A DNA stretch of 64,000 nt from Octopus vulgaris (taxonomy: Eukaryota): contig OX597836.1 in the NCBI GenBank assembly GCA_951406725.2, positions 27,032,001 through 27,096,000 of the forward strand, written 5' to 3'. Below the pieces are notes generated by a model. The model was given only the letters and a program-made list of their open reading frames with translations. It did no database searches and was not told where the DNA came from. A program made the translations under genes and the position numbers. Positions 9,001 through 12,000 of the stretch are shown here, piece after piece; position 1 is the first letter of the stretch, and the number at the start of each line of letters is the position of its first letter.

Positions 9001-12000
9001 TTCAGATAAATATTGGTGATGCTGGTAGTATCTTTGAGAGAAAACAAATGATAATACATCAAATTAAGGACTCTTGGAGCAAGTATAACCTTGAGAAAGG
9101 AGTGGAGGGCATCAAAGAACTGTCTTACAAGTAAGAATTTTTATTTTTTTCCATTTTGGTGTATCAGTGGAAGAGAAACTGAGAAAAAATGTATAAATTC
9201 TTAAAATTTTTTTTTTATAAAGCCAAAACAAGTTATAAGAAAGAATATAAGTTAATGATTTGTGCTTTTACATTGTACTTCAATATTTTGGGTTTAATTG
9301 CTCTTCTTCAGGATACATTGGAATACTAGGTAAAAACACAAACCATCAACCTGTATTATTTCTATGATCGATGCCAGTGCCACCTGACTGGCTACCATGC
9401 TGGTGGCATGTAAAAAGCACCATTCAAGCATGGTCATTGCCAGTGCTGCCTGACTGGCTCCCATGCCAGTGACATGTAAAAAGCACCCATTACACTCACG
9501 GAGTGGTTGGCGTTAGGAAAGGCATCAAGCTGTAGAAACATTGCCAGATTGGATTGGAGCCTGGTGCAGCCTCCTGGTGTACCAGTCCTCAGTCAAACCG
9601 TCCAACCCATGCCAGAATGGGAAGCGGACGTTAAACAATGATGATGATGATGATGATGATGATGATGATGAACTTGCATTGTTTTGGCTTTATAAGCAAA
9701 AACTCTGTGTGTGTGTGTGTGTGTGTGTGCACGCGCATGGGTGTGTGTGTTTAGGAGCAAATGTGACTCTGTGGTAAGAAGTACACTTTCCCAGCCCCTG
9801 ATTTACCTGTTCTTTTGTATGATGATTGTACAATAATTAGTCCTTTTACACTAATTAAAGATGGAGTTTGACGGTCTTTTTTCTTCTTTTGTCTTTTTAA
9901 ACATTCCTTTAGCCTTCCCCACTTCATAAATTTTGTTTGTCTTTTAGGAAGAAGAAAACCTTAAGTGCCAAAATGAGACTGCCCAAAGACCTGATTCCTT
10001 TGTCATACGATATAAAAGTCCAACCAGAAATTTATGGTGGTGACCCAACAAAATTCTACTTCCACGGGACCGTTCAGATGCACATAATATCTCTAAAACC
10101 TGTTAGGACTATTACCTTCCATGCAGACAATTTGGAAATTTCAAACTTAACTGTATACACAAACAATGAAATATCATCCCGTGTTCCAATTCTGTCCACA
10201 TCCATTGATAAAGAAAAGCAGATGTTTAACATTCTTCTTGGAACAGAAATTGCTGCCAACACCAGTGTCACAGTGAAATTAAACTTCAGGGGTGACCTGA
10301 AGAAACAACTGAGTGGTCTCTACCTTAGTTCTTATTACAAAAGAGGAAAAGAGGTGTAAGTATTTGTTCCTTCTTTATTCTAAAGAAAAAAAAAAATTAT
10401 TGTTGTTGAAACCCAGATCAGCCTTAACAAGGCTAACAAATGATAAAAGCCACTCCTGTTCTAACGATTGTGTCTCTGTTGTACAATGTAAAGGGTTCAT
10501 TATTTGCATTATTTACATTATTTACATTTGACGGATATTTGCCCTCATCTTGTTTGTTGTTAACACAACGTTTCGGCTGATATACCCTCCAGCCTTCATC
10601 AGGTGCCTTGGGGAAATTTCGAACCTGGGTTCTCATTTAATTGGTCTGAAGAAGGCTTGTTAAGATATTACAGCAATGCATGTATTCAGTCCTTGAATTA
10701 ATATATATGGAAGCACTCCGTCGGTTACGACGACGAGGGTTCCGGTTGATCCGAATCAATGGAACAGCCTGTTCATGAAATTAATGTGTAAGTGGCTGAG
10801 CACTCCACAGACACGTGTACCCTTAACGTAGTTCTCGGGGATATTCAGCGTGACACAGAGAGTAACAAGGCCGGCCCTTTGAAATACAGGTACAACAGAA
10901 ACAGGAAGTAAGAGTGAGAGAAAGTTGTGGTGAAAGAGTACAGCAGGGATCACCACCATCCCCTGCCGGAGCCTCGTGGAGCTTTAGGTGTTTTCGCTCA
11001 ATAAACACTCACAACGCCCGGTCTGGGAATTGAAACCGCGATCCTATGACCGCGAGTCCGCTGCCCTAACCACTGGGCCATTGCGCCTCCACGAATTAAT
11101 ATCTAGACCAACGCATAACCATGCATTATCAATCCTGTGGGTTACAAGCTCTCATAAGTGACCCACTATAATGGATTTCAACTGATCAATTACTCATATC
11201 GAATCAATTGGGTTACAAAGTATTTGTGTATTATTTGCTGGCTTGGTGGGGTTACAGGATGTTCCACTGAACAAGTGGGCTACAAAGACAAGTAACCCAG
11301 TGGGTTACACCAATCTGTGGGTTAGAACATGTATATGAGCATGTATGTGTGTATGAGTGTATATGTGTGTGTGTGTGTGTGTGTATGAGTGTGTGTATAT
11401 ATAAGTATGTGTGGGTATATATGTGTATATATATGTGTGTATGTGTGTATATGTATATGTGTGCATGTATGTATATGTGTGTGATTATATGTGTATGTAT
11501 GTGTGTGTGTATGTATATATATGTGCGTGTGTGCATGTATATATATATATACGTATGTGTGTGTGTTTGTGTATGTATATATTGTATTACTTGTTTGAAA
11601 TGACACAATAGGTTACAGTGGCTTACAATGGTACCATTTGTTATTTATTTACTAAGACAATGAGTCACAGAACATAACAATGTAGGTTTTTCAAGACATT
11701 AGATCGTCTTCTTCAAATCTCTGCCTCAAAAAACTTGAAAAACCCCTCCAGGTGAAATAAATTCCAAAAGACACCATTTCCATTCTGTTTCAGATATTTG
11801 GCTACAACCCAGTTTGAACCAACGTCTGCCCGAAAAGCCTTCCCCTGTTTTGATGAACCTCAGATGAAGGCCAAATTCAATGTGAAGATTGTCAGAAAGA
11901 AGCATTACAAGTCCATATCTAACACCAATGTGAAGAGCAAGGTGGAACTGGAGTAAGGTTTTTTACCATTTTCTCAAATAGTTGCCATTATATATGATGA

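Follow-up and report, generated by a model that had tools for sequence, protein, structure and literature searches.

A spliced octopus gene joins two M1 aminopeptidase modules head to tail, the first of them without the catalytic tyrosine

RESULTS

Exon structure of the gene

The window analyzed here is a 64,000-nt stretch of Octopus vulgaris DNA (assembly GCA_951406725.2, contig OX597836.1, positions 27,032,001 to 27,096,000, forward strand). Exons were located by means of tblastn and splice-site refinement against Octopus sinensis and O. bimaculoides proteins, which yielded 26 plus-strand exons from position 1 to position 44722, separated by GT..AG introns and encoding a 1,107-aa frame that has no internal stop and aligns at 98.4% identity with residues 691-1797 of O. 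sinensis XP_029650203.1. More specifically, the ERAP1_C exons of a first M1 module lie at 1-26 (truncated by the window edge), 1194-1304, 3720-3884, 5650-5805, and 7318-7390, and the last exon of this module lies at 9006..9130 (125 nt). Module 2 begins with the exon at 9948..10355, which encodes a basic linker of ~10 codons and then the start of Peptidase_M1_N; the rest of its N-terminal domain is encoded at 11794-11952, 14530-14647, and 15859-15979. The catalytic exons follow at 18205-18359 (GAMEN and HELAH), 19493-19606 (the third zinc ligand, Glu), and 21037-21171 (the catalytic Tyr, in SYNKG), and 13 other exons complete the module (23474-23539, 25671-25736, 27364-27533, 29443-29552, 30313-30440, 32667-32722, 34409-34556, 36836-36891, 37714-37833, 39078-39248, 41455-41595, 43935-44013, and 44576-44718). 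No tblastn match to a third module was found past 44719 in the remaining 19 kb of the window.

Several side observations were made along the locus. Exon 5650-5805 of module 1 (156 nt, phase 2 at both ends) is missing in RefSeq isoform X2 (P0001), and its loss would delete 52 aa in frame. An intronic tandem array at 24439-25210 comprises 12.5 copies of a 62-bp unit and shows higher-order periodicity at 123 and 185 bp. Outside the gene, 59088-60227 holds a broken transposase relic, within which 59397-59585 matches Pfam Transposase_1 (E 5e-07; one of eight fragments tested).

Both modules end with the same series of intron phases (2, 2, 2, 2, 0), followed by a phase-2 GTAAG donor (at 9130 and 44718, respectively), just as an earlier note on this DNA had described for the last ERAP1_C exons. 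The donor that closes exon 44576-44718 reads TT/GTAAGT (the slash marks the exon border), and sequence comparison places it no more than one codon away from where the module 1 donor lies. A likely terminal exon at 46221..46310 (plus strand) would contribute 7 coding nt, which complete a Leu and add a Ser and the stop TGA at 46225-46227, followed by a short 3' UTR extending to a genomic A-run. Its acceptor at 46221 is the best among five candidates (17/20 pyrimidines), database models end in ...QNLS, one residue past the read-through stop at 44720-44722, and two transcript contigs (X6 and X12; see below) would, by length, stop in or beside the A-run at ~46285-46310. On paper the gene has two endings, namely, read-through to TAA 44720-44722 or splicing to this exon of seven coding bases. 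The QNLS ends, the donor at 44718, and the terminal exon at 46221 together make it likely that phase-2 introns lie on both sides of module 2. The statement of the earlier note that such introns bound each module probably holds for module 2, the only one for which it could be checked, as the window does not reach the 5' border of module 1. The phase-2 flanks of module 2 and the matching donor positions support a duplication after which splicing may have run from the old last intron into the new copy. A symmetric phase-2 duplication would be consistent with what the window contains, with the first intron of module 1 lying outside it.

The two modules are joined by splicing

At the junction, the donor at 9130 reads CAA/GTAAGA and the acceptor at 9947/9948 reads ...GTCTTTTAG/G after a pyrimidine tract. 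Together they delimit a phase-2 GT..AG intron of 817 nt (9131..9947). The stop met on read-through, TAA 9132-9134, lies directly past 9130, and the stop reading of GTAA is uninformative at both module ends. The junction intron contains a high-copy repeat at ~9342-9635 (~290 nt), (ATG)n at 9638-9671, and (TG)n at 9706-9729; with the microsatellites totaling 58 nt, repeat and microsatellite account for ~43% of its length, so that its earlier description as mostly SINE and microsatellite was overstated. No AATAAA occurs in 9131-9947, and a single ATTAAA is located at 9854.

To follow the junction into RNA, we relied on contigs assembled from sequencing runs. Four of the 24 listed runs, drawn from four studies (one run per study) and two organism codes, were placed on 8950-10400; their RNA status is a guess ("probable RNA"), and their sequences are contigs rather than reads, from which rare forms are dropped. 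In all four, contigs carry the 9130/9948 joint with GT..AG ends, the short side of the joint-spanning matches being 96-125 nt, and in each run exons 9006-9130 and 9948-10355 lie on one contig at equal depth. Exon 9006-9130 matched the contigs of the four runs with 0 mismatches, and over the junction exons three runs showed 0 mismatches and the run with the other organism code showed 5. Spliced RNA is the likely source of these contigs, because the GT..AG intron has been removed exactly. The proposed in-frame splice from module 1 into module 2 is thus borne out by contigs of all four probable RNA runs. The X6 contig (5,631 nt) extends 2,761 nt ahead of exon 9006 and 2,337 nt beyond 10355. The orthologue-based coding sequence needs 2,601 nt upstream of exon 9006 and 2,256 coding nt past 10355, so that, judged by length only, this contig is long enough for the whole two-module coding sequence.

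These data bear on a different reading of the locus, in which two neighboring genes are joined by minor read-through or by a merge in assembly or prediction, and module 2 starts alone (e.g., at ATG 9973). Contigs do drop rare forms, and merges occur in this family (see the linker lengths below). However, the 9130/9948 joint was the sole form at these two exons in 4/4 runs. The non-repeat part of the intron was without contig cover except for one bin in X1, and neither this cover nor the AATAAA scan gave a sign of a poly(A) site or of a hidden first exon; this check is weak, since contigs lose rare forms and 24 of 486 loose ends were listed. Likewise, module 2 has no signal peptide or anchor of its own, in agreement with the earlier note: no hydrophobic segment was found in the window-encoded protein (best 19-residue Kyte-Doolittle mean, 1.18). 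The O. vulgaris annotation would favor separate genes insofar as it cuts the locus into four entries (CAI9739506-9). Yet one of these, CAI9739507.1 (P0006), extends across the junction and shows 100% identity to the window over 323 aa (compared with 98.4% for the O. sinensis protein, in line with O. vulgaris as the most likely source of the window), and the short linker between the modules is kept in O. bimaculoides, Argonauta, P0040, and P0046. We therefore regard the two-gene reading as largely refuted and very improbable. As a side observation, CAI9739508.1 and CAI9739509.1 are without 33 aa of exon 19493-19606, among them the third zinc ligand; these residues are intact in the window, and the gap is likely an annotation error.

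Orthologues have two modules behind one anchor

With the first exon of module 2 as the query, two matches were obtained from 558 candidates, one from O. sinensis (1,746 aa) and one from O. bimaculoides (1,692 aa). Both contain Peptidase_M1_N, Peptidase_M1, and ERAP1_C twice each, above the Pfam cut-off. RefSeq holds two-module models with the same junction for O. sinensis (XP_029650203.1, 1,798 aa, and XP_029650204.1) and O. bimaculoides (XP_014776693.1). These are automatic annotations under single-enzyme names, and our literature search found no paper on them. Orthologues P0004 and P0002 have one hydrophobic helix, which starts at residue 24 after a basic stretch, and a single anchor is present in each of P0004, P0002, P0040, and P0046. 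From its sequence, the helix would fit a type II anchor, behind which the predicted ectodomain carries 8 + 10 N-x-S/T sequons in the two modules. Two points that the window leaves outside its borders can be taken from the orthologues, in which the anchor, which had been placed upstream, is N-terminal and the module count is exactly two M1 modules with one anchor.

The octopus gene, the Argonauta protein (P0013), P0040, and P0046 form an orthologous set module by module (tree support, 100). Cephalopods have a second two-module M1 gene (P0043, P0407, and P0045, the cluster of the last including a Sepia pharaonis entry), which occupies a separate position in the tree and has intact zinc ligands and tyrosine in both modules.

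Module 2 is intact and module 1 has lost the tyrosine

Module 2 comprises 889 aa from the junction Lys, with Peptidase_M1_N, Peptidase_M1, and ERAP1_C in this order (the window exons map to the second set of domains) and 10 N-x-S/T sequons, one more than the minimum of 9 given earlier for the complete 889-aa module. All of its motifs are intact, i.e., HELAH and NEGF (HExxH-x18-E), GAMEN, and the catalytic Tyr in SYNKG, and module 2 is predicted from these motifs to be a working zinc aminopeptidase.

Module 1 is 26% identical to module 2. In the three Octopus species, it keeps HEVIH and the Glu 18 residues later (HExxH-x18-E), and its exopeptidase motif is AGMEN, in which MEN is kept and the first Gly of GxMEN is replaced by Ala. 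The Argonauta module 1 entry begins past the histidines of the zinc motif. The YRE motif behind GAMEN is replaced in octopod module 1. At the column of the catalytic tyrosine (ERAP1 Tyr438), which was set by alignment to ERAP1 chains and is surrounded by gaps where the tyrosine is lost, module 1 of O. sinensis, O. vulgaris, O. bimaculoides, and Argonauta carries either Asn or a gap. The loop ahead of this position is shortened by 9 residues (17 in Argonauta). According to PMC8421391, ERAP1 Tyr438 is expected to stabilize the oxyanion. Because this tyrosine is lost, module 1 is likely weak or inactive.

Structure prediction for module 1 (P0005; pLDDT 80.9, pTM 0.79, with the last part of ERAP1_C absent from the model) returned the M1 fold, with ERAP1 and IRAP as the best Foldseek matches (E 1e-50). 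Model confidence fell below pLDDT 50 at 449-458, the loop leading to the tyrosine position. The branch leading to module 1 is also the longest in the tree, at 1.3 compared with 0.3 for module 2. Among the best 120 of 1,211 matches (415-1,322 aa), no stand-alone relative of module 1 exceeded 30% identity, and its top three matches among 1.84 billion representatives were two-module orthologues.

The retained residues raise the question of whether both modules are active, with differing specificities as in somatic ACE and with module 1 using another residue to stabilize the transition state or acting on unusual substrates. The zinc ligands, the catalytic Glu, and MEN of module 1 are kept in three Octopus species and in P0040 and P0046; the latter two orthologues also retain the tyrosine in module 1, and most other chained proteins have every motif in each module (see below). 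The kept HExxH-x18-E and AGMEN, together with the tyrosine of P0040 and P0046, are an argument that some catalytic or zinc-binding role has been under selection. On the other hand, octopod module 1 combines the missing tyrosine with a loop 9-17 residues shorter, a replaced YRE, and the longest branch, and we consider activity of both modules to be rather unlikely. At a probability of about 60%, our preferred reading is one two-module chain in which module 2 is the predicted working peptidase and module 1 is likely a stalk or a peptide-binding partner.

The linker

The octopod linkers are ~10-15 aa long (assessed by eye, being poorly delimited automatically) and contain three to four consecutive lysines in Octopus and Argonauta. 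In the junction model (P0006; pTM 0.55), the last helix of module 1 leads through a low-confidence hinge into the beta-sandwich of module 2, and the packing of the modules is not fixed. The low pLDDT (<50) at residues 127-141 fits an exposed hinge.

A basic and flexible linker is also what a precursor would show if the linker were cut and module 2 freed as a soluble or non-covalently held enzyme; pro-sucrase-isomaltase is an analogue of a precursor cleaved after synthesis. The run of lysines and the pLDDT of the linker are in favor of such processing, but the linker contains no R-x-K/R-R furin site, the linker of P0046 has no basic run, and those of other animals are short and not basic. Cleavage of this kind appears improbable to us, and we retain the covalent two-module chain as the preferred reading.

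Chained M1 proteins in other animals

A search for M1 proteins of 1,146-3,270 aa gave 465 matches at E 1e-30 or better, in a ranking that favors multi-module proteins; the best 120 were analyzed together with P0004. These 121 proteins come from bivalves, gastropods, a brachiopod, an annelid, rotifers, starfish, chelicerates, crustaceans, insects, and two fish, and many of the chained entries carry the name "putative aminopeptidase-2". Three catalytic cores were found in 79, two in 40, and one in 2, such that 119/121 of these long proteins (best 120 of 465, plus P0004) have two or three modules. The rarity of multi-module M1 proteins that the earlier note had implied is not supported, since a two-module protein is already in RefSeq and chains are common in invertebrate sequence sets.

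Some of the 121 long entries are prediction merges. Of 203 junctions, we set aside 8 whose limits were poorly defined, including those of the octopod orthologues, and measured the remaining 195. Linkers were 30 aa or shorter at 174/195 junctions (median, 11) and longer than 30 aa at 21, of which 15, with both fish entries among them, contain a hydrophobic stretch resembling the remnant of a signal or anchor. Only short linkers occur in 98/113 proteins. In addition, 12 of the 120 matches are Logan or JGI contigs of 5.3-10.8 kb with the whole frame on the contig, which are likely spliced mRNA. All four motif checks were passed by 297/319 modules. The tyrosine is kept in 311/319, with 2 gaps and 6 substitutions, and three of the six substitutions are Octopus module 1 entries, two of which are isoforms of one gene. 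A weakened first module is, on this comparison of sequences, likely octopod-specific.

In module trees (128 rows, and a 39-row subset), modules often cluster by lineage, and both octopus modules are placed among molluscan APN-like sequences; an origin of both modules inside cephalopods is possible, neither established nor rejected by a tree support of 71. A single origin with fixed module order was rejected (all first modules together: p-AU 8e-05 for animals, 2e-04 for molluscs). Repeated origins of the chained proteins would be the simplest reading of these trees, in which gene conversion between modules could mimic the pattern.

Further architectures were seen among these proteins. Bees, ants, and wasps share a conserved three-module protein of ~2,700 aa (P0041-P0124), in which each module of the Bombus protein is orthologous to the one at the same position in Nasonia; many hymenopteran chains end in a hydrophobic tail resembling a GPI signal, and module 3 has lost catalytic residues in three vespid entries. 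Oyster and scallop entries show portions of an additional, fourth module, and one Chelonus entry reaches 4,087 aa (P0008, P0009, and P0129). The chelicerate three-module proteins P0022, P0031, P0033, P0038, and P0080 have GAMEH instead of GAMEN in the first module.

DISCUSSION

One spliced octopus gene encodes two full M1 modules head to tail. It shares the Pfam domains PF17900, PF01433, and PF11838, the fold, and the motifs with ANPEP, ENPEP, LNPEP, and ERAP1/2, and its orthologues resemble membrane M1 peptidases of the aminopeptidase N type in having an N-terminal anchor followed by the ectodomain. Unlike in aminopeptidase N, the domain set occurs twice behind one anchor, and the first copy has no catalytic tyrosine. 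Solved relatives each match as one module (best 60 of 115). The chains of bivalves, gastropods, rotifers, starfish, chelicerates, and Hymenoptera are likewise head-to-tail M1 proteins, with a median linker of 11 aa, and mostly keep full catalytic motifs in every module, in contrast to octopod module 1.

With the anchor taken from the orthologues, the product would probably be a type II membrane glycoprotein of ~200 kDa at the surface or in a lumen, with module 1 closest to the membrane and module 2 farthest out. Module 2 may trim N-terminal residues, as its motifs suggest, and module 1, weak or inactive after the loss of its tyrosine, may serve as a folded stalk or peptide-binding partner. The gene could have arisen by tandem duplication, whereby a phase-2 intron just ahead of the old stop codon came to be spliced into the downstream copy. 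A whole catalytic unit duplicated behind one anchor is familiar from somatic ACE, sucrase-isomaltase, lactase-phlorizin hydrolase, and carboxypeptidase D, all of which belong to enzyme families other than M1; carboxypeptidase D and lactase include inactive repeats.

Chained M1 peptidases are apparently widespread, already present in automatic gene models, and undescribed. We found no description of them in a full-text literature search, with most subscription papers outside its reach. C. elegans T16G12.1 is a long multi-domain M1 protein, and the architecture may therefore be in print already. PMC6857582 counts T16G12.1 among the M1 aminopeptidases of C. elegans. As a tentative wider proposal, which we hold to be possible rather than probable, invertebrate APN may have been chained many times independently by way of a phase-2 intron before the stop, giving overlooked two- to four-headed peptidases, of which the octopod inner head would be a pseudo-enzyme that binds zinc and either captures peptides or regulates its outer neighbor.

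M1 aminopeptidases have been studied as single modules, with their activity tied to the opening and closing of domains. Where two or three modules are naturally chained through linkers of ~11 residues, questions arise on coupling between modules, division of substrate specificity, and formation of the usual dimer. Linker length and content tell true chains from prediction merges, which is useful when the gut peptidases of molluscs, ticks, bees, and ants are to be annotated. The octopus gene would offer a natural pair of an active and a weakened module in one chain, if the predicted activities are correct.
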